IMG/VR virus record: IMGVR_UViG_3300025120_000060
Location: 1 to 57,269 of that record
DNA length: 57,269 nt
Strand: one strand, 5' to 3'
Source of the DNA: a virus
Taxonomy: Duplodnaviria > Caudoviricetes
Shown here: piece after piece, positions 2,699 through 38,319 of the stretch
Layout of the letters: each line of letters begins with the position of its first letter
How positions within the stretch are numbered: position 1 is the first letter of the stretch
Translations under genes and position numbers: made by a program
Notes under the pieces: generated by a model
What the model saw: the letters and a program-made list of their open reading frames with translations, nothing else
The model's database searches: none
What the model was told of the DNA's origin: nothing

Positions 2699-2833
2699 AT
2701 GAAACAATGCCAAATATGTGGTTGTCTCTGTCACTGTTCTTTAGGGACTCCTTGCATGTGCGAGTGTCCAAGGTGTGTTCATGATCAGCCGAGCTCAGAT
2801 GAGCAAACAAATAATGAAACCGGGAAGGGGTAA
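2699..2833 (+). CDS. Cys-rich metallothionein-like 44-aa peptide (not in ORF track)
   Basis: Hand translation MKQCQICGCLCHCSLGTPCMCECPRCVHDQ...; 9 Cys in the first 26 aa; TAATG coupling to the upstream stop. Confidence 0.6.
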   Translation: MKQCQICGCLCHCSLGTPCMCECPRCVHDQPSSDEQTNNETGKG

Positions 2834-2838
2834 GAAAA

Positions 2839-3156
2839 ATGGCAAAATTGTGCGCAAAAGGAAAAGCCGCCGCAAAGCGAAAGTTTAAAGTATATCCTTC
2901 AGCATACGCAAACATGTACGCGGGTGCAGTATGCTCAGGTAAAGTTACACCTGGAGGAAAGAAAAAAGTTCAAAAGAAAGCTATGGGTGGTAGATTGACA
3001 ACAACAGTTCCACCGGAAAGAGGTCCTAATCCAGAAGGTACTTTAAACAAATTATCACAATCAAGAAAAATGATTTCAAGTTACGACCAAGGTGGTATCG
3101 CTAGAGGATGTGGTGCTGTTATGAAAAATCGTAGAAAAGTTACAAAGAGAGCCTAA
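2839..3156 (+). CDS. Small basic protein (PSAYAN motif), probably virion-associated
   Basis: KRKFKVYPSAYANMY; Lys-rich; GG motifs. Confidence 0.75.
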   Translation: MAKLCAKGKAAAKRKFKVYPSAYANMYAGAVCSGKVTPGGKKKVQKKAMGGRLTTTVPPERGPNPEGTLNKLSQSRKMISSYDQGGIARGCGAVMKNRRKVTKRA

Positions 3157-3281
3157 TGAAACAAGCTAAAAGAAAAATTAAAAAAGTCATTAAAGGACTT
3201 AACAAAGCCTCTAAGCTTCATGCAAAACAAGCTAAAACTTTAAGTGGAGTTATTAAAAAAAATGGCAAAAAAAGGTCTTAA
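3156..3281 (+). CDS. Small Lys-rich peptide (KASKLHAKQAKTL)
   Basis: Hand-translated 41-aa ORF coupled TAATG to the upstream gene. Confidence 0.55.
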   Translation: MKQAKRKIKKVIKGLNKASKLHAKQAKTLSGVIKKNGKKRS

Positions 3282-3531
3282 AGCTTGGGTTAAAGAAAAT
3301 TGGGTAGACATAGCCAATAAAAAAGCCGACGGGTCTTATCCTAAATGTGGCCGAAGCGGTAAAGAGAAAAGAAAAAATTATCCTAAATGTGTCCCGGCTG
3401 CAAAAGCAGCGTCTATGTCTAGGGGACAAAAAGCTAGTGCGGTCAGCAGAAAACAAAAGGCAGGTAATCCAGGTGGTAAACCCACAATGGTAAAAACAAT
3501 TGTCAAGAAGAAAACAAGCAGAAAAAATTAA
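3262..3531 (+). CDS. Small basic protein (WVDI...CGRS...YPKCVP motif)
   Basis: ORF 3244..3531, likely start MAKKGLKAW at 3262. Confidence 0.75.
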   Translation: MAKKGLKAWVKENWVDIANKKADGSYPKCGRSGKEKRKNYPKCVPAAKAASMSRGQKASAVSRKQKAGNPGGKPTMVKTIVKKKTSRKN

Positions 3532-4090
3532 AGAAGACGTAGTTGAATGGTCTAAGCAAGTCTTAGAACCAATGAACAAACACATAGGTTTTCCTGCATG
3601 TCCTTTTGCAGCTAAATGGAGAAAAGATAATAAACTACGAATTGAAGTTCGTATGGATAAATCTAAGTATGAAAAACAACTTACAGATGTAATTAAATCT
3701 TGGAATAAAAAACAACACGACATTATCATTTATTGCGATCCTTTTTTTGATCAATATTCTTTTGAACAGTTCAATGATAAAGTTAATTTTTACAATAAAC
3801 TGTATAACAAAAAAGATGTGTATTTTATGGGCTTTCATCCAGACGTGCCTGCTACAGTAGAGGGACAAGAATTTTTAGTAGATCCCACAGATAATTGCGC
3901 ATATGAAGGAGATCTTGAGTATTCTATGATGTTGATACAAAAATTTAAACAGCTCTATGATGCAAGTTGCAAACTACATAAGATAGGTTATTATAAAAAA
4001 TGGCCGGCTGAGTATTACGACGAGGTCGTAAAAACTAGGCAAGATAAGTACGAAAAACTTTTTAAAAAGGAGAAAAAAAATGCGAGGTAA
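3500..4090 (+). CDS. Hypothetical protein with CPFA and FHP motifs (DUF1415-like)
   Basis: PACPFAAK and FMGFHPD motifs. Confidence 0.6.
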   Translation: MSRRKQAEKIKEDVVEWSKQVLEPMNKHIGFPACPFAAKWRKDNKLRIEVRMDKSKYEKQLTDVIKSWNKKQHDIIIYCDPFFDQYSFEQFNDKVNFYNKLYNKKDVYFMGFHPDVPATVEGQEFLVDPTDNCAYEGDLEYSMMLIQKFKQLYDASCKLHKIGYYKKWPAEYYDEVVKTRQDKYEKLFKKEKKNAR

Positions 4091-8512: not shown

Positions 8513-9016
8513 TTGATTCAAATAAAAGATAATTTCTTTGTAGATATTAATAAAATTAAAGAAAGTTTACAAAAAGTTCCTATATATAACGCTAAGGATT
8601 GGGAAACTTCTTTTGATACAGAAGTATACTGGCAAGGAAATAGAAGTCGTGATTTTAAATTATCTCATTCAAACTTGTTTGATACAATAAAAAAAAATAT
8701 TCAAGATACTTTTGAAAAGCAATATAAAATAAACACAATGTGTATGCATGAAAGAAAAGATGATAAAATGAATCCTCACATAGATGATGATGATAGTGAT
8801 ACTAATTGTTTAATTTTTATTACTGGTAAAGAGGGGTTTTGTAATGGAACAGGATTTTATAACGATAAGGAATTATCTATTGCCGCAGGTTTTAAAGAAA
8901 ATAGAGCTTTGTTATTTCCTTCGAATTATTTACACTCTTGTATGCAAGCTTTATATCCAGATACAGCTACGTCAAGAGTCACTATTAATTGTTTTATGAG
9001 TCTTGTAACAAATTAA
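8513..9016 (+). CDS. 2OG-Fe(II) oxygenase superfamily protein
   Basis: PHID, GTGFY, NRALLFPSNYLH, RxT motifs. Confidence 0.75.
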   Translation: MIQIKDNFFVDINKIKESLQKVPIYNAKDWETSFDTEVYWQGNRSRDFKLSHSNLFDTIKKNIQDTFEKQYKINTMCMHERKDDKMNPHIDDDDSDTNCLIFITGKEGFCNGTGFYNDKELSIAAGFKENRALLFPSNYLHSCMQALYPDTATSRVTINCFMSLVTN

Positions 9017-9480
9017 TGCCTATATTTGATCCTGATGGAATGTGTCCTCTTTTAAAAAAGAAGTGTATAAAACATCGATGTATTTGGTACAATATGCTTC
9101 AAGGTAAAAATCCACAAACAGGTTTAGACGTTCAAGAATGGGGTTGTTCTATTGCTTGGATTCCTTTACTTTTGGTAGAAAATTCTAGGCAAACAATGCA
9201 AGTCCAAGCAGCCACAGAATCCTTTAGAAATGAAATGGTTGATTCTAACAAAGCTATGGAAGGGCTATTGCAAAAAAGTGATACAGCATCGAATTTAATG
9301 CGAAATACTACGACAATATTTAATTTGTTAGCTAGACAACAAAGAGCTGTTATGGAAGGAGATAAGAGTTTAGCAGACGAAACAATTGGACAATTAAGCA
9401 ATAATAATATAAAAATTAAAAAGAAGCCTAAAAAGGCTTTAGCTAAAAAGGTGAAAAAAAATGGCAACAACAGTAAATAA
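9016..9480 (+). CDS. Cys-containing tail-region protein
   Basis: CPL...C...CIW, GKNPQTG, WGCSIAW, ESFRNE; start refined to ATG 9016. Confidence 0.7.
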   Translation: MPIFDPDGMCPLLKKKCIKHRCIWYNMLQGKNPQTGLDVQEWGCSIAWIPLLLVENSRQTMQVQAATESFRNEMVDSNKAMEGLLQKSDTASNLMRNTTTIFNLLARQQRAVMEGDKSLADETIGQLSNNNIKIKKKPKKALAKKVKKNGNNSK

Positions 9481-9934
9481 CACAACAGTTCAAAGTAGAA
9501 TCACAGTAATTTTTGATGCTGCGGGTTCTTTAGATGGAAACGGCCCTGCAAAAGGCACAGGAGATACTGAGTCAGATGTTTATTTAGATAGCACTGTGCA
9601 TTATAACATTCGATCTCACACAGAAATAGACTCAAATGTACATGCTTTACAATGGGATGCGAGTACAAATACAGGTCATCTTGAATACATTGATACTCGA
9701 GATAATCTTTCAATCTCTTCTTTTCCTCAATGGGCTACCAATGTAGTGATTAGAGCGGAAGCTCAAGATGTTTGGAATACAGCTTACAATGCAAATCTCA
9801 CAGCACAAGGTAACACTTGGAAAGCTGCAAACCCTGGAGTTGAAGAAGGATTCTCTGCCGACACCTCACAGGCAACTAGCGTAGCCGACACAGAAAGAAA
9901 CAACTATCTTTCTGCACACAGTATTACTTTCTAA
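9461..9934 (+). CDS. Tail-fibre-associated (assembly-like) protein
   Basis: VHALQW motif; position beside the fibre gene. Confidence 0.55.
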   Translation: MATTVNNTTVQSRITVIFDAAGSLDGNGPAKGTGDTESDVYLDSTVHYNIRSHTEIDSNVHALQWDASTNTGHLEYIDTRDNLSISSFPQWATNVVIRAEAQDVWNTAYNANLTAQGNTWKAANPGVEEGFSADTSQATSVADTERNNYLSAHSITF

Positions 9935-9955
9935 GTAATTGTGTATAAATAGAAA

Positions 9956-10498
9956 ATGAAAGAATACATATTAGACGTTAAAAAACTAATACCCCAAACT
10001 TTTTGCAAGAAAATTATTTCTTATTTTGATAGTGACTATGAGGATGCAAGAACCGTGGGAGGTGTTAGCAAAGATACAAGAAATTGTGTATCAAGAAATA
10101 TTTTAGAAACTAAAACATTTGGTGAAAAAATTTGTTTAAATGCAGTTCAAGAAAAAATATTTGAATGTGTACAACACTATAAAAATAAACACGATATACA
10201 TATCGAAAAAATTTCACAATTAGATATTCTTAAATACGAAAAAAATGATCATCAAGCGGGTTATAAATTTCATCAGGATTTTGGCCCCACAGTTACAGAA
10301 AGACATTTGTCTATTTCTGTTTGTTTAAATAATGAATATGAAGGTGGAGAGTTTGTTTTTGATTTACCCTCAGGAAATCATGTGGTTCCACAAAATATAG
10401 GTGATGCTGTTATTTTTCCGTCTAATTTTATGTTTTCTCATCAAGTCAACAAAATTACAAAGGGGACACGATACGCTTTAATAGGGTGGGTAATATAA
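9956..10498 (+). CDS. 2OG-Fe(II) oxygenase (prolyl-4-hydroxylase-like)
   Basis: HQD, YEGGEF, FPSNFMFSHQV, GTRYA. Confidence 0.9.
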   Translation: MKEYILDVKKLIPQTFCKKIISYFDSDYEDARTVGGVSKDTRNCVSRNILETKTFGEKICLNAVQEKIFECVQHYKNKHDIHIEKISQLDILKYEKNDHQAGYKFHQDFGPTVTERHLSISVCLNNEYEGGEFVFDLPSGNHVVPQNIGDAVIFPSNFMFSHQVNKITKGTRYALIGWVI

Positions 10499-11088
10499 TG
10501 GAACCAATTTTTATAAAAGAATTTTTACCACAACAAGTTTTAAATCTAGTGTATTCCTATTCAGTTGTTAAATATTCAAATCAAAAAAAATTTAATGTTG
10601 ATTCTCAAACAAATTCTTTGATTGGAGAACATAGTGATTATTTGATGGAAACTTTAATGGAGGCTAGCACTTCCGTTATAGAACAAAACATAGGGAAAAA
10701 ATTGTGGCCCACTTATTCTTATTTTAGAATTTATGATAAAGGTTCCGATTTAAAAATACACACTGATAGAGAGTCTTGTGAATATACAGTTGCTCTTTGT
10801 TTAGGGGCAGATCCTATTGATCAACCTTATGAAATATTCGTTGGGGAAGAAGATGAGACTTCAGATTATAAATACTATAGCTCTGACGGAAAATATAATA
10901 GATACAGGATAGATCATAAATTTTCTATGCTTCCTAATAATGCAGTGATCTTCAAAGGAATGGATAAGATTCATTGGAGAGAGATGTGTAAACACGATCA
11001 TTTTACTACTGTGTTTTTACATTATGTAGATCAAGAAGGTGATTACGCAGAATACAAATATGATAAAAGAAAAATGCTTGGAGAATGA
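10486..11088 (+). CDS. 2OG-Fe(II) oxygenase
   Basis: PTYSYFRIY, HTDRESCE, HWRE, FLHYV. Confidence 0.85.
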   Translation: MGNIMEPIFIKEFLPQQVLNLVYSYSVVKYSNQKKFNVDSQTNSLIGEHSDYLMETLMEASTSVIEQNIGKKLWPTYSYFRIYDKGSDLKIHTDRESCEYTVALCLGADPIDQPYEIFVGEEDETSDYKYYSSDGKYNRYRIDHKFSMLPNNAVIFKGMDKIHWREMCKHDHFTTVFLHYVDQEGDYAEYKYDKRKMLGE

Positions 11089-11891
11089 AAAATGATCTCT
11101 ATGTATTAAATGGAGGCATAGGTAAAAACATCTGCTTTACGAATTGTTTGAATGAATTAAACAATATTACGATTATGTCGACTTGGCCTATGATTTTTAA
11201 AAACCATCCTAAGGTAAATTTTGCTTATCATTATGATTTATGTGGATGGAAAGATGATACAAATTTCTTAAATAAATTTAATAAAGTGCATTTGGTAGAG
11301 GGATATAGTTCTTATTTTTTAACTAATAAAGTACACCTAATAAATAGTTTTAGGCACTCACTTAATATTGAAATAACAAAAGATTTGTATAATGAGATAT
11401 ACTTTACAGAGGATGACGAGAAAGAAATGCAACCTCTGCTGCAACAACTTGAAAACTATGTAATGGTGCAGTTTGTAGGTAGTGACGAGCAACACAATGA
11501 AACGGATTTTGTTGGATCAAGATGTTTAACCAAAAAACAATCTCAAGAGATTATTAATATCTTAAATTTTGATTTAAAATTAAATGTTTTAAATGTTTTT
11601 TCTGTAAAAAATTTCTTCGAAAATACTTGCAAAATAGATGTTTCTTTTGATTACATGCATTATGCTCATTTGATTAAGTATGCAAAAAGCTTTATTGGAA
11701 TAGATAGTTCACTTAATCACATGTCTTCTAACAAGTTTTGTAAAACAAAAGGAGTTGTGCTTTGGAATGATGCAAATGTTTCAGAAAGATTTTATTATGA
11801 TAAAAATATAAATCTTATAACAAATACACCAAAGGTAATGAGATTTGATGTAAACTCAGTTATAGACAATTTAAAAAAACAATTAATTTAA
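11085..11891 (+). CDS. Glycosyltransferase, GT9/heptosyltransferase-like
   Basis: GGIGK N-terminus; FIGIDSSLNH; VVLW. Confidence 0.7.
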   Translation: MKNDLYVLNGGIGKNICFTNCLNELNNITIMSTWPMIFKNHPKVNFAYHYDLCGWKDDTNFLNKFNKVHLVEGYSSYFLTNKVHLINSFRHSLNIEITKDLYNEIYFTEDDEKEMQPLLQQLENYVMVQFVGSDEQHNETDFVGSRCLTKKQSQEIINILNFDLKLNVLNVFSVKNFFENTCKIDVSFDYMHYAHLIKYAKSFIGIDSSLNHMSSNKFCKTKGVVLWNDANVSERFYYDKNINLITNTPKVMRFDVNSVIDNLKKQLI

Positions 11892-11909
11892 AAAAGCACA
11901 GGAGAACAA

Positions 11910-12722
11910 ATGATTAAACCAGAAGAAATAAAAAATAAGAACTTTAGAATTTTTTTAGGAATGCCGATGTACGGCGGGATGCTAACAGAAAGCACTTTAC
12001 ATGGTCTGTTAGAATTACAGTCTTGGACTGCAGCTAATAACGTAAACCTTAGGATACAAACAATAGGTAACGAAAGTCTTATAACTAGAGCTAGAAATAC
12101 AGTAGTATCTATGATGTTTGATCAACAAGATTTTGTAGCAACTCACTTACTATTTATAGATGCGGACATAGGTTTTACATGGCAGAATATTGAAAGATTA
12201 CTTTGCGCTGAAAAGGATGTGGCTTGTGGTATTTATCCAAGAAAACACTTACATTTAGAGAAATTAAAAAAAATTCTCGAAGAAAATCCTAACGCACAAC
12301 CTGATGAAATAGAAGCAAGAGCCTTAGGTTATAATGTAAATTTTGATGATCCTTTTAATTTAAAAGGAGAACATGGTTTTTTCCCTGTACAAGAAGCTGC
12401 AACAGGAATGATGCTTGTAAAAAGGAGCGTCTTTAGAACAATGATGAAAAAATTTCCTGAAAGAAAGTATGAGTCGGATCAAATAGTTAATGGCGGATCT
12501 TATAAGTCTGATAACTGTTATGATTTATTTGCAGTCGGACCTTACGAAACAAAGACTGTTGAAGGAAAAACACAAAAAAGATACTTATCTGAAGACTATT
12601 ATTTTTCTCGTTTATGGCAAGAGTGTGGTGGAGAGATATGGGCAGATTTAGCCATGCCTTTGACTCATTTTGGTAATAGAGCATTTAAAGGCCACGTTGG
12701 GTCTTTAGTTGCTAAAAAATGA
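11910..12722 (+). CDS. Glycosyltransferase, GT-A fold
   Basis: ESLITRARN, LFIDADI (DxD), ATGMMLV, LSEDYYF. Confidence 0.85.
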   Translation: MIKPEEIKNKNFRIFLGMPMYGGMLTESTLHGLLELQSWTAANNVNLRIQTIGNESLITRARNTVVSMMFDQQDFVATHLLFIDADIGFTWQNIERLLCAEKDVACGIYPRKHLHLEKLKKILEENPNAQPDEIEARALGYNVNFDDPFNLKGEHGFFPVQEAATGMMLVKRSVFRTMMKKFPERKYESDQIVNGGSYKSDNCYDLFAVGPYETKTVEGKTQKRYLSEDYYFSRLWQECGGEIWADLAMPLTHFGNRAFKGHVGSLVAKK

Positions 12723-13225
12723 TCGAAACAATTATTCATAAAGATTCTTTTTTTACTAATGAATATACTGGAGATATAAATCAAATAGATGCACACATAA
12801 AACATCTTATTACTTTTGATAAAGGAAGAGTGTTAAGTAATGAGGGGGGATATCAAAGCAATGACATTACCTTTGGTTTTCACGAACTTATAGTGTTTGC
12901 CATCAACAGTTTAAATTCAATTAATCAAAAGGTAAAACTAGCAAATTTTTGGGTAAATATAAATAAGGGAGAACACTCTAACAAAGTACACAATCATACT
13001 TTGGACAGTTGGTCAGCAGTATACTATCACAAAGTTTGTTGTGAAAAGTCATCTTTAAATTTTCACAATCTTATTCCTATTATAAATAGCAGTGTTTGCT
13101 CATATTATCCAAAAGAAAAACAAATGATTTTTTTTAAAGGAGTACAACCTCACTCTGTAAGTGCCTGTAATGGCGTGGACCACGAAAGAATTTCAATAGC
13201 TTTTAATTTACCTAAATGCTCCTAG
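12719..13225 (+). CDS. 2OG-Fe(II) oxygenase
   Basis: GGYQS, WVNIN, HNH, HSV, RISIAFN. Confidence 0.85.
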   Translation: MIETIIHKDSFFTNEYTGDINQIDAHIKHLITFDKGRVLSNEGGYQSNDITFGFHELIVFAINSLNSINQKVKLANFWVNINKGEHSNKVHNHTLDSWSAVYYHKVCCEKSSLNFHNLIPIINSSVCSYYPKEKQMIFFKGVQPHSVSACNGVDHERISIAFNLPKCS

Positions 13226-13234
13226 TGAAATATA

Positions 13235-13714
13235 ATGAGTGTAGATACAAAAATAATAGAGTTCTATTTACCTAAAAATGATTGTTTAAATATATCTAAT
13301 TTTGTTTATCAAGAAAAAGATAAATGGGCTAAAGATTTAAAAAATGTCAAGTCACTAACCTCAGGTTTTAATCCAGATTATAAATTTATACATGACATAG
13401 GCTATCTTTGTTGTGATGAAATTTTACCTCAAAAAACAGATATAAAAAAATGGGAAAAAACCTGGTGGTGGATAAACTTTTATGAAAAAGGTCATTACGC
13501 TGCAAGACATCATCATAATCCTGAACATTATTCAATGATAATGGTTATTAAGCCTTCAACTAATAATTGTTTAAATTTTAATATAGAAGATAAAGATTTA
13601 AAGGTAGAAGAAAAAGAAGGTTTATCATTAATATTTCCTTCTACAATCGAGCATTGGGTAGATCCTGTTGAATCAGATAGAATATCTATTGCTATGGATT
13701 TCCGACCCTTTTAA
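13235..13714 (+). CDS. 2OG-Fe(II) oxygenase
   Basis: WINFY, HHH, IFPS...HWV, RISIAMD. Confidence 0.8.
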   Translation: MSVDTKIIEFYLPKNDCLNISNFVYQEKDKWAKDLKNVKSLTSGFNPDYKFIHDIGYLCCDEILPQKTDIKKWEKTWWWINFYEKGHYAARHHHNPEHYSMIMVIKPSTNNCLNFNIEDKDLKVEEKEGLSLIFPSTIEHWVDPVESDRISIAMDFRPF

Positions 13715-16098: not shown

Positions 16099-16638
16099 TT
16101 GAATTATCCTCTCTTAAGAAACTTTAGTGTCGATCCTTTAATAACAAAATTTTTAATAGACAAATACGAGAGCTATAGAAATTCTAACCCTATGACATGG
16201 CAAGAAAATACCTCTTTTAATAATAATGAAAAAAACTCAGGGTATCAGACACCTAACTTACATAAATGGCAAGATGAGGAGTTTCAAACTTTTTTAAATA
16301 ATGGTCTTTCTAAATTTGTATCTGAGCAATTAGGAACAGATAAATTCTCTTACTTTTGGGTTCATTATTTAGAGTATGAGAATGGAGGGGGTATGGACAT
16401 ACACAAACATTGGCATAATGAGGATTTTGTTTTATTTCTTTATCTTTCAACCTGTAATTCAGGACATACTGTTTTCTATCTAAATGATTACAATCAAGAA
16501 CACATGGAAAGAACCTGTATTAGAGTGCAGCCTATAAAGAGTACAGGCACTTGTTTTTCTTCTCTATTATCTCATAAAGGCGAATTTACATACGAAAATA
16601 AAAAAATATTTGTCGTAGGATTAAAACTTAATCCTTAG
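16099..16638 (+). CDS. 2OG-Fe(II) oxygenase
   Basis: GYQT, HKH, LYL, GHTVFY, HKG. Confidence 0.7.
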   Translation: MNYPLLRNFSVDPLITKFLIDKYESYRNSNPMTWQENTSFNNNEKNSGYQTPNLHKWQDEEFQTFLNNGLSKFVSEQLGTDKFSYFWVHYLEYENGGGMDIHKHWHNEDFVLFLYLSTCNSGHTVFYLNDYNQEHMERTCIRVQPIKSTGTCFSSLLSHKGEFTYENKKIFVVGLKLNP

Positions 16639-26139: not shown

Positions 26140-26341
26140 CGTGTTCTTCTAAGGCTTCCCAGACTTCAACTTTAGACCAGTGTTGCATGACGGCTTTATT
26201 AATGTCTTCGTGCAACACTTTTAAATTACCTAAATCTAATCGTATAGGTGTTCCATTATTTTCTGAAACGTTTTTAACTTCTGCTTTGGTTAGACTTAGA
26301 TATAAATCACCGTCTTGATAGACTATCCTCATACTCCGCAC
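26129..26341 (-). CDS. Hypothetical protein
   Basis: ORF coupled downstream of the PAPS-reductase-like gene. Confidence 0.65.
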   Translation of the reverse strand: MRSMRIVYQDGDLYLSLTKAEVKNVSENNGTPIRLDLGNLKVLHEDINKAVMQHWSKVEVWEALEEHARS

Positions 26342-27186
26342 ATCCCATCACAATCATTGATTGCAACACCACCTAGTTCATCAAACATGGACATCTGACC
26401 ATTGTCTTTTGCTTTTTCATCAATATCAATTTCGCTCAGCGGTTTACCTTCTTTAGTAACAAAGACCGTGTAGCCTTCTCTCATACCTTTGAAGCCACCA
26501 TTAATTTTCTTTTCAAACTCAATAACATGTTGAAATTCCTCTGGTGAATTATCTTTTAAATTTTTCCATTCTTTCCAGGTTTTATAAGGACAGAAAGTAC
26601 ATGCTGATCTTGGAGGCTTTGGCATAGCATGATCTTCAAACCATTTCTTGCACATGGCTCTAGTAATATTTCTCTCTACCAAAGGATACATGTTTTTGAT
26701 CCAAGGCTTTCTAGCTTCTTTTACACGATAAGTTTCATCACGAGATATACCCATGATCATTTCTACAACAGTTCCTTTTTTAACACGTTGTCCTTTTTGA
26801 TAACCCATATATTGTCTACAAAACTTGTGAATAGGTTCGATCTTGTAGTGCCCGGTACACTGACGGGTTAAGATACCCATGCTGTGTTTCTTTGGGTCTT
26901 TAGTAAAAAAAGGTGGGGTTCTTGAAGTATGCAAACCTTCTGCTGCTTCAATGGAATCTCGTTCTATGTCTCCTGCACTAATAACATGAATAGGATAATT
27001 TTTAATCTTAGTCTTCATCCATTCAAACCATTCGTAAACTTCTTTGGGTTCTGCCATTGTATCTGCAAAAACAGCGAAGTCAGGCATAGGGCCTATCTCA
27101 CCATACTCGTACATAAATGCTAAAGTGCTAGACTGCACTCCTGCGCCTAAAGATAATACTCTAGGACCTTTAATTAAATCAGCCAT
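26329..27186 (-). CDS. PAPS-reductase-like (PP-loop) protein with Cys clusters
   Basis: LSLGAGVQS, FADT..EP, RQCT..YK, SACTFCPY, CDGMC. Confidence 0.8.
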   Translation of the reverse strand: MADLIKGPRVLSLGAGVQSSTLAFMYEYGEIGPMPDFAVFADTMAEPKEVYEWFEWMKTKIKNYPIHVISAGDIERDSIEAAEGLHTSRTPPFFTKDPKKHSMGILTRQCTGHYKIEPIHKFCRQYMGYQKGQRVKKGTVVEMIMGISRDETYRVKEARKPWIKNMYPLVERNITRAMCKKWFEDHAMPKPPRSACTFCPYKTWKEWKNLKDNSPEEFQHVIEFEKKINGGFKGMREGYTVFVTKEGKPLSEIDIDEKAKDNGQMSMFDELGGVAINDCDGMCGV

Positions 27187-28616
27187 TGTTTTAACTCCTC
27201 TCCCATGACTTGCGTCGCTATGTTAATCTTATTTCTTAAACTTTGTACAATCTTTTCATCCACAGTGCCTTCGGTTACTAGGTCAACATAAGTGACCTTT
27301 GATGTTTGTCCTATGCGGTGCACCCTATCCTCAGATTGTAATCGGACTTCTAAGTCATAAGAGTTACTATAATATATCACAGTGTGACTTCTAGTTAAAG
27401 TCAAACCATAACCGCCTGTTTTAGGATTACCTACGAAATATCTTAACTCTTCTTCGTTTTGAAACCTATCTACAATGCTTTGTCTCTCTTCACTGTGAGT
27501 GTCTCCATAAAAAGTAGCAACGGAACCTGGACCATGAACCTTGGCAATTTCTTTTGCAATCGTTTGTATGTCGTGTCTATAGTTTGCCCAGATAAGAACT
27601 TTGCCGGATGTTTCACCAAGTATGTTCATGAGTTCTTTTATCCTGTTGTTTTCAACTTCCTTTACTTCACCGTTGTCAAGCTTTACGTGTCCACATACTA
27701 TTTGATGTAGTCTTAAAATTTGTGTTAGAGCTGACAGTGCAGTTAATCTCTCTCCTTCAATGTTGGCGATAGCCATCCTCTTCATAGAAACATAAGCTTC
27801 CATTTGTTTTGGAGTCATTGATACATGACGCACTTGATATATCTTTTCAGGTAGATCAAGACAATCATCTTTAAGCACGCGGTAGCTAAAATGTTCAATC
27901 TTTTCTGCAAGCTCTTCGAGTCTTTGATACCTTACAATCATGTTAAAGTTATGAGTAGGCATGTTTCTTCTAACCATTACACAGTATCTGTTTTTAAAAG
28001 CCCAGAAAGAACTAAAGCCCAATAAATCTTCGTCCAAAAAAGCACACTGAGAATAAAGATCTATAGGTGATCGAGTAACAGGAGAACCTGTCATGATTCT
28101 TTTGTACTTAATCAGAGGTGACATCTTTAAAATATTTTTAGTTCGAGCAGCTGTAGGGTTTTTTATAGTTGTGCTTTCATCAATGGCCACCATACATCTG
28201 TGAGAAAGAAAAAACTTCTTAGCGAAGTCAACTCCCTTTTTTGTACTGAACGCTTCTATGTTCATAAGAAAAATTTTAAACTTATCGTTAGGTAAAAAAA
28301 TCTTATCTAATTTTTTTCTATCTTCTGCTTTGTTATCAGAGCCCCATATAAAAATGTCAGGCACAATGTGTTCCGGTAAATGATTATTAAGTTCTCTTAT
28401 CCAGTTTTTGTAAACTGTTTTAGGAGCTATAACACATAGGCTTTCAATATGTCCATTGTCATAAAGATAGCTAGAGTTATAAATAGCTACAAGAGTTTTA
28501 CCTGTACCCATTTCCATAAACCAGGCAAAATTATCTTTTTCTAAAGCTGCACCTAATGCAGCTAGCTGATGAGCAAAAGGCTCAGTCTTAAACGGATAGT
28601 CCTGTATTTTATTCAT
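27174..28616 (-). CDS. SNF2-family helicase
   Basis: MEMGTGKT, DEST, MTGSP, GGYGLTLT, QSEDRVHRIGQ. Confidence 0.93.
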   Translation of the reverse strand: MNKIQDYPFKTEPFAHQLAALGAALEKDNFAWFMEMGTGKTLVAIYNSSYLYDNGHIESLCVIAPKTVYKNWIRELNNHLPEHIVPDIFIWGSDNKAEDRKKLDKIFLPNDKFKIFLMNIEAFSTKKGVDFAKKFFLSHRCMVAIDESTTIKNPTAARTKNILKMSPLIKYKRIMTGSPVTRSPIDLYSQCAFLDEDLLGFSSFWAFKNRYCVMVRRNMPTHNFNMIVRYQRLEELAEKIEHFSYRVLKDDCLDLPEKIYQVRHVSMTPKQMEAYVSMKRMAIANIEGERLTALSALTQILRLHQIVCGHVKLDNGEVKEVENNRIKELMNILGETSGKVLIWANYRHDIQTIAKEIAKVHGPGSVATFYGDTHSEERQSIVDRFQNEEELRYFVGNPKTGGYGLTLTRSHTVIYYSNSYDLEVRLQSEDRVHRIGQTSKVTYVDLVTEGTVDEKIVQSLRNKINIATQVMGEELKQWLI

Positions 28617-33480: not shown

Positions 33481-35393
33481 AAGAACATAATTGGATACTA
33501 CCAGAGTATAAGGAAGGAAAGATAGAATCTTACATGAGTAATCAAATACCTATGTTTCAACCACCAAGCGAGTGGTTGCCGCCAGAAAACATTCCTAATT
33601 TAGATGACGCTAAAGAAATAGCTGTTGATTTAGAAACAATGGACCCTGACATAAAAACAAAAGGCCCTGGTTGGGCTACCGGGAACGGTGCAATCATTGG
33701 TGTAGCCATGGCAGTAGAAGGTTGGAAGGGTTACTTTCCTTTACGACATCCTGGTGGTGGTAACTTTGATGAGAAAATATTTTTTAGAAATTTTAAAAAG
33801 ATGATGTCTTTACCCAATAGAAAGATTTTTCATAATGCTATGTATGATGTTGGTTGGCTTAAACATCAAGAGATACCTGTCAACGGCACGTTGATTGATA
33901 CAATGATAGCAGCTCAAATCATAGACGAGAATCGTATGGGTTACTCTCTTAACGCTGTTGCTAAAGACTATTTGGGTGAAAAGAAATCAGAAGCTTTACT
34001 TTATGAGGCTGCAAAAGAGTGGGGTGTAGACCCTAAAGGCGAGATGTATAAGCTCCCCGCACAGTTTGTAGGACCTTATGCTGAACAGGATGCCGAGCTC
34101 ACACTGAAGTTGTGGGGTCGCCTGGAGTCAGAAATATATAAACAAGATTTAGTTTCCATATTCTCATTAGAGACGAACATTCTTCCGGCTTTAATTGAGA
34201 TGAAGTGGAGAGGTGTCCGTGTTGACACCAGTCGTGCTGCTCAGATAAAAGAGAAACTCCTTCAAGAAGAGAATCTTCTTCTTTCCTCTATCCAAAACAT
34301 CTCAGGGGTTTCTGTTGATTTGTGGGCAGCACGTTCAGTTGCGAAAGCATTTGACTCTATGGACATACCTTACGAAAAGACTGCAAAGTCGAAGGAACCT
34401 AAGTTCGATAAGAATTTTTTAGGAACTCACCCAAGTAAGTTGGCTAACTTAATTGTTCAGGCTCGTGAGATAAATAAAGCCAGGACAACTTTTATTGACA
34501 CAATTATGAAGCATCAACACAAAGGTAGAATACACGCTGAGATACATCAAATGAGATCTGACCAGGGCGGAACTGTTACAGGTAGGTTCTCAATGAGTAA
34601 CCCTAACCTTCAACAGATACCTGCAAGAAACGCAAAGATTGGACCAATGATAAGAAGTTTATTTATACCTGAAGAAGGAGCGAAGTGGGGTTGCTTTGAT
34701 TACAACCAACAAGAACCACGGCTCGTGGCTCACTACGCTGCTATAACCAGGAATGGTTTAGAAGGTGCTGATAAAGTTATTGACGGATATAATAGTGACC
34801 TGGACTTCCATGGCACTGTTGCAGAGATGGCTAACATTGATCGTAAAACTGCAAAGACAATTAACCTGGGGCTGTTCTATGGAATGGGTAAAGGTAAATT
34901 AAAAAGTCAGCTTGGGTTAAACGATGAACAGGCCGATGCTTTGTTTAAAACTTATCACAGTCGTGTGCCTTTTGTTAAACAGCTCACGGAACAGGCCTCT
35001 AAGTCTGCACAAGAGAATGGTTTTGTTAGAACTTTACTGGGACGTAAGTGTCGTTTTGATTTATGGGAGCCCGCAAGCTTCGGTATTCATAAGCCATTGC
35101 AACGTGAACAAGCGACCAGGGAACATGGAAAAAATATTAAACGTGCGTTTACATACAAAGCTTTGAATAGATTGATACAAGGTTCAGCAGCTGACATGAC
35201 AAAGAAAGCAATTTTAGATTTATATAAAGAAGGAATAGTTCCACACATACAAGTGCATGATGAATTAGATTGTTCGTTTGAATCAGAAATACATGCAAAG
35301 AAAATTGAAAAGCAAATGGTAGAGTGTGTTGAGTTAAAGGTACCTGTTAAAGTTGATTGTGAAGTTGGCTCTAGTTGGGGCGATATTAAATAA
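33477..35393 (+). CDS. polA: DNA polymerase family A with 3'-5' exonuclease
   Basis: DLET, HNAMYD, YAEQDA, TGRFS...PNLQQIP, DYNQQEPR, AKTINLGLFYG, IQGSAAD, QVHDE. Confidence 0.95.
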   Translation: MKEHNWILPEYKEGKIESYMSNQIPMFQPPSEWLPPENIPNLDDAKEIAVDLETMDPDIKTKGPGWATGNGAIIGVAMAVEGWKGYFPLRHPGGGNFDEKIFFRNFKKMMSLPNRKIFHNAMYDVGWLKHQEIPVNGTLIDTMIAAQIIDENRMGYSLNAVAKDYLGEKKSEALLYEAAKEWGVDPKGEMYKLPAQFVGPYAEQDAELTLKLWGRLESEIYKQDLVSIFSLETNILPALIEMKWRGVRVDTSRAAQIKEKLLQEENLLLSSIQNISGVSVDLWAARSVAKAFDSMDIPYEKTAKSKEPKFDKNFLGTHPSKLANLIVQAREINKARTTFIDTIMKHQHKGRIHAEIHQMRSDQGGTVTGRFSMSNPNLQQIPARNAKIGPMIRSLFIPEEGAKWGCFDYNQQEPRLVAHYAAITRNGLEGADKVIDGYNSDLDFHGTVAEMANIDRKTAKTINLGLFYGMGKGKLKSQLGLNDEQADALFKTYHSRVPFVKQLTEQASKSAQENGFVRTLLGRKCRFDLWEPASFGIHKPLQREQATREHGKNIKRAFTYKALNRLIQGSAADMTKKAILDLYKEGIVPHIQVHDELDCSFESEIHAKKIEKQMVECVELKVPVKVDCEVGSSWGDIK

Positions 35394-35507
35394 ACCGCGT
35401 AAAATAACGAAAATAAAACAGCTTTTAAGAGCCATACAGGGGTGTCTTTTATATGCTCCTGTATGATTGCATTCAGGTAAAAATAACAATTAATATCTTT
35501 TTAGGAG

Positions 35508-35537
35508 TTGACATAATTAGTTGAGATATTATATACT
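35508..35537 (+). promoter_or_regulatory. Sigma70-like promoter upstream of the RHH / RAMP-like / array operon
   Basis: TTGACA 35508-35513; TATACT 35532-35537. Confidence 0.7.
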
Positions 35538-35695
35538 TACCATAGAAATAAAGAAAGGAGTTCAACATGGAATATACAATACCAAGTTGGGTAGAACTTA
35601 TATTAATAGACAGCGAAGGGAGCGACGATGATGATTAGTATTATTATCGGATGCGTTATAGCCATTCTAATTGTAAATCATTTGGGGTGGATATA

Positions 35696-35848
35696 ATGAC
35701 AGACATATCAAGGTACAAGTCTGTAGCTATTAAAAAAGATAGTTACAAAAAACTAAAAGGCATGGCAGATCAAGATTACAGATCAGTGGCAGGCTTTATA
35801 GAATACTTAATAGACAAAGAAATAGAGGAGAGAAGAAATGCCAAGTAA
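35696..35848 (+). CDS. Ribbon-helix-helix (CopG/Arc-like) DNA-binding protein
   Basis: YKSVAI beta strand then LKGMA...RSVAGFIEYLI; start refined to ATG 35696. Confidence 0.65.
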   Translation: MTDISRYKSVAIKKDSYKKLKGMADQDYRSVAGFIEYLIDKEIEERRNAK

Positions 35849-36464
35849 GAAAGAACCAGAAAACATTACAGTCCCAGGCGTGGTGCTACAAGACTGTGTA
35901 ATAACACTCAAAGGTGATTCACCTTTAATATGCAACAAATGGTCAGAGAAGGCCAAACAAGAAATAAGAGATAAGCAGATGAAGATAGCTAAAGCTGCGG
36001 GTAGACAAGCTAAGGATCCTGAAAAATGTTTTAGAGATTCTTTATATCAAATGCCAAATGGTAAAGATTACGGCTTCCCGGCTATTGCTTTTAAAGCTGC
36101 TGCTGTGAATGCTTGTTCTCACATTGATGGTCTTACAAAGGTCTCGGCTCGTGGATCATTTCACATTCCGTGTGACTTAATTAAGATCATTGGTAAACCA
36201 GTCATGAGAGAAGACATGGTGCGTGTTGGTATGGGTGCCGCTGATCTTAGATACAGAGGTGAGTTTACTAAATGGGAAGCTGAAGTTCCTGTAAGATACA
36301 ACGGAAATGCCTGGTCAATTGAACAATTGATTAACGTTTTTAACGTAGCGGGGTTTGCGTCTGGTGTTGGTGAATGGAGACCGCAAAAGAACGGTAACTT
36401 TGGAATGTTCAAAGTAACTAATGTAACAAAAATCGAAAGAAAGAAAGAGGTAAAAGTTGCGTAG
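35838..36464 (+). CDS. RAMP/Cas7-like RNA-binding protein (Vipr-like effector)
   Basis: ITLKGDSPLI first strand; FPAIAFKAA equivalent to the RAMP P.ss.KG helix; C-terminal G-rich loop AGFASGVGEWRPQKNGNFGMFKV. Confidence 0.75.
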   Translation: MPSKKEPENITVPGVVLQDCVITLKGDSPLICNKWSEKAKQEIRDKQMKIAKAAGRQAKDPEKCFRDSLYQMPNGKDYGFPAIAFKAAAVNACSHIDGLTKVSARGSFHIPCDLIKIIGKPVMREDMVRVGMGAADLRYRGEFTKWEAEVPVRYNGNAWSIEQLINVFNVAGFASGVGEWRPQKNGNFGMFKVTNVTKIERKKEVKVA

Positions 36465-36966
36465 AAAAATAATACAGTCCTATCAATTTAGGGGCAGCAA
36501 GACAACAAAGTATTCAGTGGACGCTCAAGTTGTTGGAGAAGAACTTGAAGCGATAACTAACAAGCACGGGACACTCAATCCACACGTTGTGGTGAAGGCG
36601 GCAGAAAGAAAGAGTTCGCCGCTTCACAAGTGCTTCACGTGGGATGATGCTTCTGCTGCAGATAAGCATCGGTTGCACGAAGCAAGGATGCTCATTGGTT
36701 CTGTCATGGTCGTCACGCAGCATGTAGACGAACCGGTGCGTGCTTTCCATAGTGTAAAGGTGACTACGTCGAACGGAGATGACGACACATCTGAGCGTAG
36801 TTACGTTCCATTGGATATTGCGTTGAGCGATGATGATTATCGAAGGCAGATCTTAGAACAGGCTGCCAGAGATCTTCATACTTGGAGAAGAAAATATGGG
36901 GAACTAAGAGAACTTCATAAATTTTTCTCTGAGGCTCAGCGTATCATTGATAAGTATGCAGCTTAA
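36457..36966 (+). CDS. Partner protein of the RAMP-like gene, function unknown
   Basis: LNPHVVV..A...SPLHKCFTWDD..AA..HRL.EAR.LI motif; overlaps the RAMP-like stop. Confidence 0.7.
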   Translation: MRRKIIQSYQFRGSKTTKYSVDAQVVGEELEAITNKHGTLNPHVVVKAAERKSSPLHKCFTWDDASAADKHRLHEARMLIGSVMVVTQHVDEPVRAFHSVKVTTSNGDDDTSERSYVPLDIALSDDDYRRQILEQAARDLHTWRRKYGELRELHKFFSEAQRIIDKYAA

Positions 36967-37127
36967 CAGGCATACTAGATGTAGTGGTGTTGCAAAAACG
37001 CAACACCACATATAGAGGAAGGATTAATTAATTATGAAAAAATATACTTATAAACATATCATAGAAATTTTATTAAAAAAAGAGGGTTGGATTAGAGTTC
37101 CTCTTTATTTACCTACGAGGGTTATCG

Positions 37128-37334
37128 ATGGCAAGTAGTGATGAATACTATGAAGAGAAGGTAAACGAGTTACGTGAATTGTATGACCATCTCGAAAATG
37201 CTTTGATAGCAGTCAGTAATGCTTCTCGATGTAAAGGTCGATTGCATTTACAGAAAGATCAACAAGATGAAATGAATACCATGATATTGGACCTTGAAGA
37301 TCTGTTGGCTACAGTCGATGACATAGAACCTTAG
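37128..37334 (+). CDS. Small acidic helical protein
   Basis: GAGG RBS; its TAG stop overlaps the first base of the array. Confidence 0.6.
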   Translation: MASSDEYYEEKVNELRELYDHLENALIAVSNASRCKGRLHLQKDQQDEMNTMILDLEDLLATVDDIEP

Positions 37335-37799
37335 GCAGGCTTAGCGAGGCTAGTTATGGCCCGGTGAGGTGAGTTTTTGGTGAGGCAGGCAAGGTCAGGT
37401 TTTGCGGGGTAAGGTGCGGTGTGGAGCGGTGTGTCAAGGCAGGATAGGTAAGGCGAGCATTGTTCAGGATCGGTTTGATTGCGGCAGGCGTGGTAAGTTA
37501 GGGACAGGACAGGTAGGGCCTGGATTGGTGTGGATTGGCGAGGCAGGCGAGGTGAGGTTTGTTGCGTTTTGATATGTTGAGTTTAGTTGAGGCAGGCGTG
37601 TTGAGGTCGGGTACGTTCTGGTGGTGTAAGGTGTGGTGATACAGGAGTGGTAAGTTTGAGTGAGGTATGGTCGGGTTTGTTGCGGCAGGCGGGGTGAGGT
37701 GCGTTCAGGTGAGGAGTGTTATTGGTATGTTGAGGCAGGCCAGGTATGTCCAGGTTTGGTATGATCCGGACGGGTAAGGCAAGTTAAGGTAAGGCCGGA
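37334..37799 (+). ncRNA. Array of nine GGCAGG-delimited units of (GGY-NN)n pentamers; putative guide-RNA array
   Basis: Delimiters at 37334, 37384, 37438, 37483, 37542, 37591, 37640 (TACAGG), 37684, 37734 and 37793 (GGCCGG); 5-nt periodicity; no ORF in track. Confidence 0.8.
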
Positions 37800-37810
37800 A
37801 AGGAGATAGC

Positions 37811-37951
37811 ATGGAAAAACTCATGACTGGTAGCCGGGCAATGAAAATTGTCAAGGATTACATAATTAAGGATATTGCCGACGAGGACGTTACAGTAGCG
37901 GTTCTTGCGTTGGAGAAATATATAAAAAGTTTGGAAAAGAGTGTTAAGTGA
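37811..37951 (+). CDS. Small hypothetical protein (46 aa)
   Basis: AAGGAG RBS immediately after the array; hand translation MEKLMTGSRAMKIVK... Confidence 0.6.
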   Translation: MEKLMTGSRAMKIVKDYIIKDIADEDVTVAVLALEKYIKSLEKSVK

Positions 37952-38074
37952 GATAGTCTATCACTCGGATTATCAATCCCACCCTAATCCAAAGGGTCGA
38001 CACCTGGTCTTTAGCCTCTTAACCCAGGTACGTGGTGTGACTGATGGAGAGACATCAACCAAGAAAGGAAAGAG

Positions 38075-38242
38075 ATGAACAAGACTATAGACAAACTCGT
38101 TAAGACAAAAAGATCAAAAGAAGTAGACAAGATAGAAGAGATGAAGTTAAAAAATATTATTGAAGTTGCTGTAAGAAAACGAGCTCCAGAGTGGTTAAAA
38201 GAACTTATCAAGGCCGACGACGCACGGATCACGAAACATTAA
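38075..38242 (+). CDS. Small hypothetical protein (55 aa)
   Basis: AAGGA RBS; MNKTIDKLVKTK... Confidence 0.55.
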   Translation: MNKTIDKLVKTKRSKEVDKIEEMKLKNIIEVAVRKRAPEWLKELIKADDARITKH

Positions 38243-38319
38243 AATGTCAATAGTAAAGAGTATTTGCTGTTGGGATTCTAATTTTATATATTGATCGTTC
38301 GCGCAAAATGGAGGTCAAA

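Follow-up and report, generated by a model that had tools for sequence, protein, structure and literature searches.

The virus record IMGVR_UViG_3300025120_000060 of IMG/VR is a stretch of 57,269 nucleotides (nt), which we call the window. Between positions 35508 and 37810 it carries an operon that we identify as VIPR, for Viral Interference Programmable Repeat, in a marine tailed phage, with a probability that we put at roughly 0.87. The operon encodes a RAMP protein, Vipr, and ends in an array of G-rich pentamers that would serve as guides; every feature of the locus described below lies on the plus strand. VIPR was described in 2026 (10.64898/2026.04.26.720920, 10.64898/2026.04.26.720927), so the kind of system is already known, if very recent, and this locus is another member with target predictions of its own. 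An earlier note on the same DNA had proposed a candidate non-CRISPR RNA-guided system here. Its tentative link to VIPR proved right; the system is not new in kind, VIPR being already in print. The parts that it listed (a promoter, an RHH regulator, a 208 amino acid (aa) protein, a partner gene, two small open reading frames (ORFs) and an array) are all present where it had placed them. Everything that we looked for in silico as a mark of VIPR was found in the locus: the protein, the array, the minimal gene set, diverse guide nucleotides and predicted targets that follow the published skip rule.

What is understood of VIPR biology comes from one E. coli phage together with its satellite. The VIPR paper counts 664 loci, and VIPR systems are sorted into types I-VII according to Vipr phylogeny, array architecture and the class of accessory gene (vap1-6). 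In SUSP1, the description by cryogenic electron microscopy (cryo-EM) has one Vipr protomer on each five-nucleotide repeat, with the GGY part sequestered and the remaining two nucleotides (NN) presented. The SUSP1 system binds double-stranded DNA (dsDNA) with one base skipped, represses transcription and is used against competing elements. The skip usually falls on the codon wobble position, and the published idea is that wobble skipping defeats synonymous escape. The earlier note had supposed that each subunit of the window's protein holds the GGY of one repeat and shows its NN, and this is the mechanism that the cryo-EM description gives for SUSP1.

The 208-aa protein encoded by vipr (35838-36464) is a homologue of SUSP1 Vipr with a Cas7/Csm3-like RAMP fold. 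A single-sequence phmmer search against the PDB sequences gave 36pp_D, 'SUSP1 Vipr protein', as the best match with a marginal E of 8.3e-4. With a profile built from 62 homologues the same chain was found at E 2.2e-13 over residues 4-188 of 202, and it was the sole PDB sequence at E <=1. The window's GVGEWRP aligns to GVGDWRP of SUSP1, with E179/W180/R181 opposite SUSP1 D177/W178/R179 and R140 opposite R138. According to the cryo-EM VIPR preprint, these SUSP1 residues contact G1/G2/Y3 of each repeat, and changing D177 or R138 to Ala abolishes SUSP1 silencing. R140, W146, G172, G176, R181 and G189 are invariant across the 62 homologues.

The AlphaFold (AF2) model of the protein (pLDDT 93.1, pTM 0.86) has a single RRM-like core, with residues 37-68 forming a helical insert and 121-143 a beta hairpin. 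The motifs from which the earlier note had argued for a RAMP layout can all be placed: SPL at residues 28-30, the PAIAFKAA helix as helix 82-95 of the model, and the G-rich loop, GVGEWRP, at 176-182. Foldseek against the PDB returned 67 matches at E <=0.001 with 6xn3_F, Csm3 of the L. lactis Csm complex, as the best (E 7.4e-6, TM 0.54), and every match listed is a chain from a CRISPR effector complex of type III or type VII (Csm3, Cmr and type VII Cas7), which bears out the RAMP fold. The PDB library that we searched ends on 8 April 2026, before the VIPR preprints, and there is no Vipr structure among the matches listed. A viral structure library gave three matches at E <=0.001, one of them labelled 'Cas system-associated RAMP superfamily protein'. 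The protein has no match in Pfam or PADLOC, and phrog_4652, to which it belongs, carries the label of unknown function.

Cas7 proteins assemble with one subunit for each fixed step of the guide RNA. [quoted passage not shown] The step differs, however, being 5 nt in VIPR and 6 in Cas7. Unlike in the Cas7 systems, the VIPR guide is the repeat itself and its pairing is gapped, using two of every five guide bases and two of every three target bases. The resemblance to Cas7 is common to all Vipr proteins.

We also looked for signs of a CRISPR-Cas system in the rest of the window. PADLOC was given 53 of the 72 ORFs of at least 60 aa, and none of them matched a core Cas model; the matches that it did report were generic 2OG, helicase and PrimPol domains. 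No CRISPR arrays or CRISPR-like repeats were found in the window. Of the marks of a class 1 (type III-like) CRISPR-Cas system, the Cas7-fold subunit is therefore present while the array and the cas genes are missing, as the earlier note had said.

The Vipr family is very large. At E <=0.001 it takes in 7110 of 7260 candidates, and after clustering at 50% identity there are 3296 cluster representatives at that threshold and 404 at E <=1e-30. The records of cultured phages with a homologue, which is annotated as hypothetical in every case, number 27 for Mycobacterium, 5 for Gordonia and 1 for a cyanophage. Because the family is this large and has no name in Pfam, PHROGs or PADLOC, many phage genomes hold VIPR loci that have not been annotated.

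The array lies in a non-coding tract that follows the second small ORF and extends as far as an ATG at 37811. Of its 476 bases 206 are G, and the autocorrelation of G is 0.40, 0.35 and 0.37 at lags of 5, 10 and 15, with all other lags at or below 0.13. The six windows with the strongest period of 5 in the 57-kb window all begin within 37201-37701, and a test for the density of GG...GG picked out 37271-37840 on the plus strand as the sole region on either strand. Tandem Repeats Finder did not report the tract, as is to be expected with NN that differ between units.

By splitting at GGCAGG, we parsed the array (37334-37800) into nine head-to-tail units. Each has a GGCA head with 8-11 G-(G/T)-Y-N-N pentamers behind it, some have one additional base, and the lengths are 43-59 nt. 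U1 (37334-37383), U6 (37591-37640) and U8 (37684-37733) have the head, 9 pentamers and 1 nt, and U3 (37438-37482) has the head, 8 pentamers and 1 nt. There are 10 pentamers after the head in U2 (37384-37437), 11 in U4 (37483-37541), and 9 in U5 (37542-37590), where GTT often replaces GGY. U7 (37641-37683) has a degenerate head, ACA(GG), and 8 pentamers; its unit family is the most widespread in the relatives. In U9 (37734-37800) the head is followed by 9 guide pentamers that reach to about 37782, and the G-rich 3' end merges into the ribosome-binding site of the next gene. At the junction GGCAG|GC, one may take GGCAG as the closing pentamer, with its final G doubling as the first base of the unit that follows; this layout is called 'staggered'. 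In the legend of fig. S18 of 10.64898/2026.04.26.720920, the staggered arrays of other VIPR types are those where vrRNAs, the VIPR guide RNAs, overlap by 1 nt, so that each begins where the one before it ends. Such an overlap fits the junctions in the window. When the array is folded there is no stable structure (z +0.72). No Rfam family lies within it, so there are no hammerheads interspersed between the units.

The array is linked to vipr well beyond the window, as the earlier note would have it. There are 21 viral contigs that encode relatives of Vipr, 39-96% identical, and by the GG...GG density test an array is present on the vipr strand in 20 of the 22 related loci, including that of mycobacteriophage Saal. 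The two loci where it is missing (L012 and L019) are on contigs that end about 800 nt past vipr, before the position where the array begins in the relatives. Gene order in the 19 loci L002-L020 is polA, RHH, vipr, vap, orf34, orf68, array and orf46, and the genes missing from this synteny fall at the ends of the loci. GGCAGG punctuation is shared by 17 related arrays, and GGCA punctuation also occurs in the arrays of two distant viral loci.

From the related arrays we collected 78 unique complete units. Their lengths are 5k-1 nt in 58 cases (44, 49, 54, 59 and 64) and 5k in the other 20 (45, 50, 55 and 60). G occupies position 1 of the pentamers in 84% and position 2 in 70% (T in 23%), position 3 is a pyrimidine in 80%, and positions 4-5 are mixed, with the NN being diverse at every pentamer index. 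Within unit families the pattern is the opposite. Across 21 such families, the variable columns at pentamer positions 1-5 number 7, 27, 36, 16 and 6 of 197; that is, 63 of 394 columns vary at positions 2 and 3 and only 22 of 394 at positions 4 and 5 (Fisher p 3e-6). NN that vary between units and are guarded within a unit family are what we would expect if the NN hold the address of the target.

The arrays are mosaic even where the Vipr proteins are about 95% identical, with single units that turn up again, 88-96% identical, elsewhere and in a different order. We see the same in contigs from other marine runs (X5, X6 and X20), which differ from window positions 37439-37792 by unit-sized pieces that end at or near unit junctions. 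In one of these contigs 37440-37641 (202 nt) is missing, in another 37733-37791 (59 nt), and a third swaps 131 nt for 44. This suggests that recombination between conserved junctions adds and removes units as cassettes. As a separate observation, U6-family units in L005, L013 and other relatives have one extra base in the 3' half (GGTGG T AGCAA GGTGT), making a unit of 50 nt, and the NN after this shift in register still resemble those of the window (AA, GT).

Saal (L001, NC_023580.1) has the same parts in another arrangement. Its gp51 (2833-3579) is the Vipr homologue and gp52 (3594-4049) the homologue of Vap, the accessory protein encoded after vipr, and both are annotated as hypothetical. 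The gap of 250 nt upstream of gp51 (2590-2840) is an almost pure GGC-NN array with GGCA punctuation. The locus adjoins genes for an immunity repressor, an antirepressor and an excisionase. The Vipr homologues of Saal, 26 other Mycobacterium phages and 5 Gordonia phages are 36-39% identical to the window's. Saal differs from the window in having its array upstream of vipr, in the near purity of the GGC-NN repeats and in its actinobacterial host.

A G-rich tract beside a RAMP-like gene could also be a protein-binding sequence, a G-quadruplex regulatory or packaging sequence, or the remnant of a coding region. The G runs could form quadruplexes, and ORFs of 34-56 aa can be drawn across the tract; its periodicity, however, is 5 and not 3. 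Contigs of depth 2-3 from one RNA-library run cover parts of vipr and the array; they may come from carried-over DNA and are no evidence of transcription. The tract nevertheless keeps to the strand of vipr whether it lies upstream, as in Saal, or downstream, as in the marine loci. Its units shuffle, come and go as cassettes among strains with 95% identical Vipr, the conservation within it is specific to position in a way that fits a GGY/NN code, and other genomes hold, in frame, protein motifs that its NN strings spell out, as we describe below. We consider a tract without a guide function to be the least probable of the explanations weighed here, and we read the array as a set of guides.

We searched for targets by turning each GGY into one wildcard base, following the published 1-nt-skip rule, and scanning both strands of the sequence collections for exact matches to the resulting patterns. 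Seven units were covered: U2, U3, U4, U6, U7, U8 and U9. From their sequences, at least three units are predicted to be aimed at particular gene families: U9 at HIT (histidine triad) genes of large marine phages, U2 at C5 cytosine DNA methylase genes, and U6 at SPFH/Band-7 genes. In the window itself there is no site with at least 80% NN match at a 1-nt skip, and none of the three families was found in the window phage genome (the best tblastn match for HIT had E 0.2).

The U9 result is the clearest. Its pattern, with 17 specified bases, has 20 exact matches in the viral_contigs collection, and the same pattern reversed, as a control, has 0. In 16 of the 20, the match is in frame in an ORF of about 120-150 aa at AGQ..(P/L/V)HIH(F/L)(I/M)PR, which we take to be the histidine-triad motif of HIT proteins. 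All five of the target ORFs that we tested are Pfam HIT (PF01230). Among the 16 HIT loci GC runs from 28% to 48%, and the skipped bases are not the same. Variants of the guide in the U9 family track variants of the target. The eighth NN is TA in the relatives and gives a full match, 9 of 9 NN, at PRYK sites (L041, L047), whereas in the window it is AA and fits PRKN and PRKK sites (L044, L051). In one relative a tenth NN (GA) lengthens the match into an Asp codon at 7 of 15 loci.

For five records with HIT genes (G001-G005), we looked at the genomes themselves. They are fragments of 15-146 kb with CheckV completeness of 4-40%. Two of them, G001 and G003, have genes for a family-B polymerase, PhoH, QueD/QueE, GTP cyclohydrolase, a Lon-like protease and virion proteins, some of them belonging to the queuosine pathway, and from this content we conclude that the HIT carriers are large, uncultured marine phages. 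Another, G002, has an open frame of 4901 codons. Two of the HIT proteins were compared with cultured phages by tblastn; one matches only Streptomyces phage phiSASD1 at 32% identity and the other matches nothing, so cultured phages offer them no near relative.

For U6 (about 17.5 specified bases), both of the two viral matches are in frame in Band_7 ORFs. In the genome_contigs collection 39 of 73 matches are in frame, at ..G(N/H)(V/I)xVERTLG(K/N)V.. or at YLETVERTLG.., and all six of the ORFs tested are SPFH/Band_7 (PF01145). The carriers are mostly metagenome-assembled genomes of Woeseiaceae and other gammaproteobacteria, along with some genomes of the Roseobacter group and Hydrogenophaga. The U2 pattern (20 specified bases) has 0 viral and 14 metagenome matches, five of them in frame at (Y/M)KQ(L/F)GNAVAV. 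The four of these ORFs that we tested are C-5 cytosine DNA methylases (PF00145); the fifth match (L155) is a cut copy that shares the 29-base site of L154. A unit of one relative matches the U2 methylase site shifted by exactly one codon, at 18 of 20.

The other four units did less well. The U4 pattern of 22 bases has 0 matches in viral_contigs and 0 in metagenome_contigs, and there were also 0 matches in the five HIT-bearing records when up to 3 mismatches were allowed. The 18-base pattern of U8 has 0 matches in viral_contigs. U7, with 16 bases, has 10 viral matches with no shared gene in a sense frame. We also considered an antisense target for U7, as 4 of the 10 lie in long antisense ORFs; these come from only two unrelated groups of contigs, one of them at 73% GC, and we judged them to be chance. 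U3 has a weak candidate, a large phage's gene for a virion structural protein, where 14 of 16 NN (15 of 16 for a relative's variant) match in frame at a single site in the ORF at L064:5568-5978, phrog_13138. A comparison of all 78 units with the five HIT-bearing records brought out the U9 family, a single site of the U3 family and nothing else, and a comparison of the 78 units with the relatives' own loci gave no excess above controls.

There are points that weigh against our reading, and they fall on both the locus and its targets. In the protein, the position facing H17 of SUSP1 is Asn33, while His is the consensus of the family. Position 2 of the pentamers, with G in 70% and T in 23%, is looser than the published GGY; the VIPR preprint accepts related consensus forms beside GGY (10.64898/2026.04.26.720920). 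Vap has no assignable fold, and we call it vap-like from its position and its homology to Saal gp52. The low-depth RNA contigs mentioned above belong here as well. For the targets, four of the seven units searched (U3, U4, U7 and U8) have no convincing one. Exact-pattern scans see perfect matches only, and they favour conserved motifs of very abundant families. The chance background is high, with 34 of 73 genomic U6 matches and 9 of 14 U2 matches in unrelated genes. The SPFH carriers are mostly 51-68% GC and are unlikely hosts for a phage of 37.7% GC. Finally, the HIT-bearing phages may or may not share a host with the window phage.

The points about the targets would be explained if the VIPR locus is genuine and the HIT, C5 methylase and SPFH targets are artefacts, with the real targets absent from the collections. 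By this logic, a degenerate pattern phased with codons will sometimes spell a conserved motif of an abundant family, the scans were limited to exact matches, and the SPFH carriers, high-GC sediment bacteria, would be incidental. Yet three of the seven patterns each fall in frame on one family, far from the background, and the reversed U9 control stands at 0 against 20. The guide variants that follow natural variants of the target and the tenth NN that reaches into the next codon also argue against artefacts, as do the one-codon shift of the relative's methylase guide and the NN that are kept within unit families while positions 2-3 drift. We therefore regard artefactual targets as unlikely, and we go on with the predicted ones.

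Another possibility is that the complex of RAMP protein and repeat RNA acts on RNA, like the type III backbones, and not on dsDNA. The closest solved folds in our library are the RNA-targeting Csm3, Cmr4 and type VII Cas7, and for the window's clade action on DNA rests on the analogy with SUSP1. That library, however, ends before the VIPR preprints. In all three predicted targets the guide runs in the same sense as the coding strand, so it can pair with the template DNA strand only and not with the mRNA. The SUSP1 homologue, moreover, binds dsDNA by the same code. An RNA target is very unlikely in our view, and DNA is the target that we assume in what follows.

What the system would do with DNA can be laid out by following the published mechanism. 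The array would be co-transcribed from the operon promoter, and cuts at the GGCA junctions would turn the transcript into vrRNAs some 45-60 nt long. Each pentamer would then take up one Vipr protomer, with the GGY buried and the NN exposed. The NN of the resulting filament would pair with dsDNA, skipping every third base of the target, and transcription would be blocked. Since the skipped base falls on the codon wobble, the guides would read the invariant codon positions of conserved motifs. The likely use is silencing genes of co-infecting viruses or resident elements, and possibly of the host. The earlier note had imagined rival phages or host genes as the quarry; this aim now has concrete candidates in the HIT, C5 methylase and SPFH genes, all predicted, and what would be hit is DNA, with a one-base skip. 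Taken further, the guides may be written, instead of against a single rival element, against invariant catalytic or structural motifs of whole protein families (the HIT His-triad, QxGNAV of the C5 methylases and VERTLG of SPFH), making the system a family-wide, motif-directed transcriptional silencer. We offer this as a tentative proposal, somewhat more doubtful than probable.

The most direct comparison is with SUSP1, a type II VIPR (PDB 36pp). The two Vipr proteins are homologous (202 aa in SUSP1 and 208 here) and keep the G-loop, GVG(D/E)WRP, and the thumb Arg. In both, a phage-borne vipr is followed by an accessory gene in a locus with no cas genes, a GGY/NN pentamer RNA array is on the same strand, and targets are read with a 1-nt skip on the wobble base, which for the window is a prediction. 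SUSP1 has vrRNAs of about 100 nt with 9-16 repeats and an invariant 3' pseudoknot tail, located both upstream and downstream of the genes, while the nine units of the window are 43-59 nt long, abut one another, have a GGCA head but no tail and lie only downstream, and T is often found at pentamer position 2. The RHH gene and two small ORFs within the conserved operon also distinguish the window. The SUSP1 target is a recombinase of its satellite, whereas the predicted targets of the window are motifs of enzyme families.

The main texts of two of the VIPR preprints (10.64898/2026.04.26.720920 and 10.64898/2026.10.15.759431) do not mention Mycobacter, marine, histidine triad, methyltransferase or SPFH, and the supplements may list the clade. 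In a full-text search of the literature, 'vrRNA' was found only in the three VIPR preprints, once in a language-model preprint and in two unrelated papers.

The window has an estimated completeness of 95% and a GC content of 37.7%. Matches to PHROGs include a terminase, a portal, head proteins, a lysozyme, a family-A DNA polymerase, a primase, helicases and several 2OG-Fe(II) oxygenases, from which we conclude that it is a tailed phage. Contigs nearly identical to the window are present in marine and viral metagenome runs from 11 studies (we compared contigs only). A megablast search of cultured phages with the locus gave no match.

The operon begins with a sigma-70-like promoter candidate at 35508-35537 (TTGACA-18-TATACT, 11 of 12 matches). 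It tops the 8 sites found in 35350-38300, a number of promoter-like sites not above that of shuffled sequences (6.5 +/- 2.6). There is no promoter-like site within 37062-37848, and for this reason the array probably relies on read-through from the promoter at 35508-35537. The first gene of the operon (35696-35848) encodes an RHH (CopG-like) protein of 50 aa, which matches Pfam RHH_5 with E 1.6e-5 at 25.0 bits, 1 bit short of the family's cut-off of 26. It is the probable regulator of the operon. An RHH gene is directly 5' of vipr in 18 of the 19 loci L002-L020, and the remaining locus begins inside vipr.

Two observations concern the DNA around this promoter. Between the DNA polymerase gene and the promoter there is a 13-bp hairpin at 35433-35465 (-20.3 kcal/mol and z -2.65 for 35395-35475), which is probably terminator-like. 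An Rfam scan of 35300-38300 found no family above threshold, and we judged a sub-threshold 'Vimentin3' at 35400-35468 to be chance. Between the promoter and the RHH gene, 35568-35697 holds two very short ORFs, one with an acidic end and the other for a hydrophobic peptide of 22 residues.

The vap-like accessory gene (36457-36966, 169 aa, TTG start, phrog_15946) overlaps vipr by 8 nt, and in all 19 loci L002-L020 vap comes directly after vipr. The protein is 33% identical to Saal gp52 (E 2e-20), and only 12 homologues sharing words with it were found. It has no match in Pfam or PADLOC. Its model is of middling confidence (pLDDT 78.7, pTM 0.48). Foldseek found nothing significant with this model, the best being a MarR-like protein at E 0.49 and probability 0.08, and the best result of a VIA search (Z 5.1) was limited to the C-terminal helical hairpin.

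After the vap stop codon is a hairpin at 36979-37013 with a perfect 10-bp core stem. Its energy is -21.2 kcal/mol (z -5.9), and 0 of 200 shuffles were as stable. It has no T-run, and it may mark a point of processing or attenuation that separates the protein genes from the small ORFs and array. The two small ORFs that follow are both kept in the relatives. The first (37034-37138, 34 aa) has tblastn matches of 58-81% identity in all 19 loci L002-L020 and no family match in Pfam. The second (37128-37334, 68 aa) has matches of 39-64% identity in 18 of these loci, with the remaining locus being cut, and no Pfam family match below E 0.1; its stop codon adjoins the array.

Elsewhere in the window, there are two groups of genes that we noticed in passing. 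On the minus strand, 26332-28616 holds a divergently oriented pair, a PAPS-reductase/SspD-like gene (PADLOC SspD E 1e-19; phrog_424) and a SNF2-type helicase gene (phrog_62; ZorD/DpdE-like), which could be a phage DNA-modification module. ORFs with matches of the 2OG-Fe(II) oxygenase type in PHROGs, PADLOC or both are at 8513-9013, 9956-10495, 12719-13222, 13235-13711 and 16099-16635, and for the ORF at 10486-11085 the matching PHROG has the label 'ferrochelatase'. The regions 8513-13711 and 16099-16635 make up an unusually dense cluster of auxiliary genes amid structural genes.

The locus represents a complete VIPR system in an uncultured lineage of marine phages, with a tail-less, staggered array and a conserved RHH regulator. 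It supplies natural target candidates for a clade whose targets are not discussed in the main texts of the VIPR preprints, and the well-studied mycobacteriophages turn out to be among the carriers of unannotated VIPR loci. If targeting at the level of motifs is true, it would extend the wobble-skip idea, as all members of a gene family may be within reach of one guide. With about 45 nt, such a guide could then silence the family over genomes as far apart as 28% and 48% GC, possibly including host genes, and the cassette-like array, with its units reshuffled among phages that are nearly identical, would serve as a modular set of 'gene-family switches'. The HIT, C5-methylase and SPFH genes would then be stakes in the conflicts between marine viruses.

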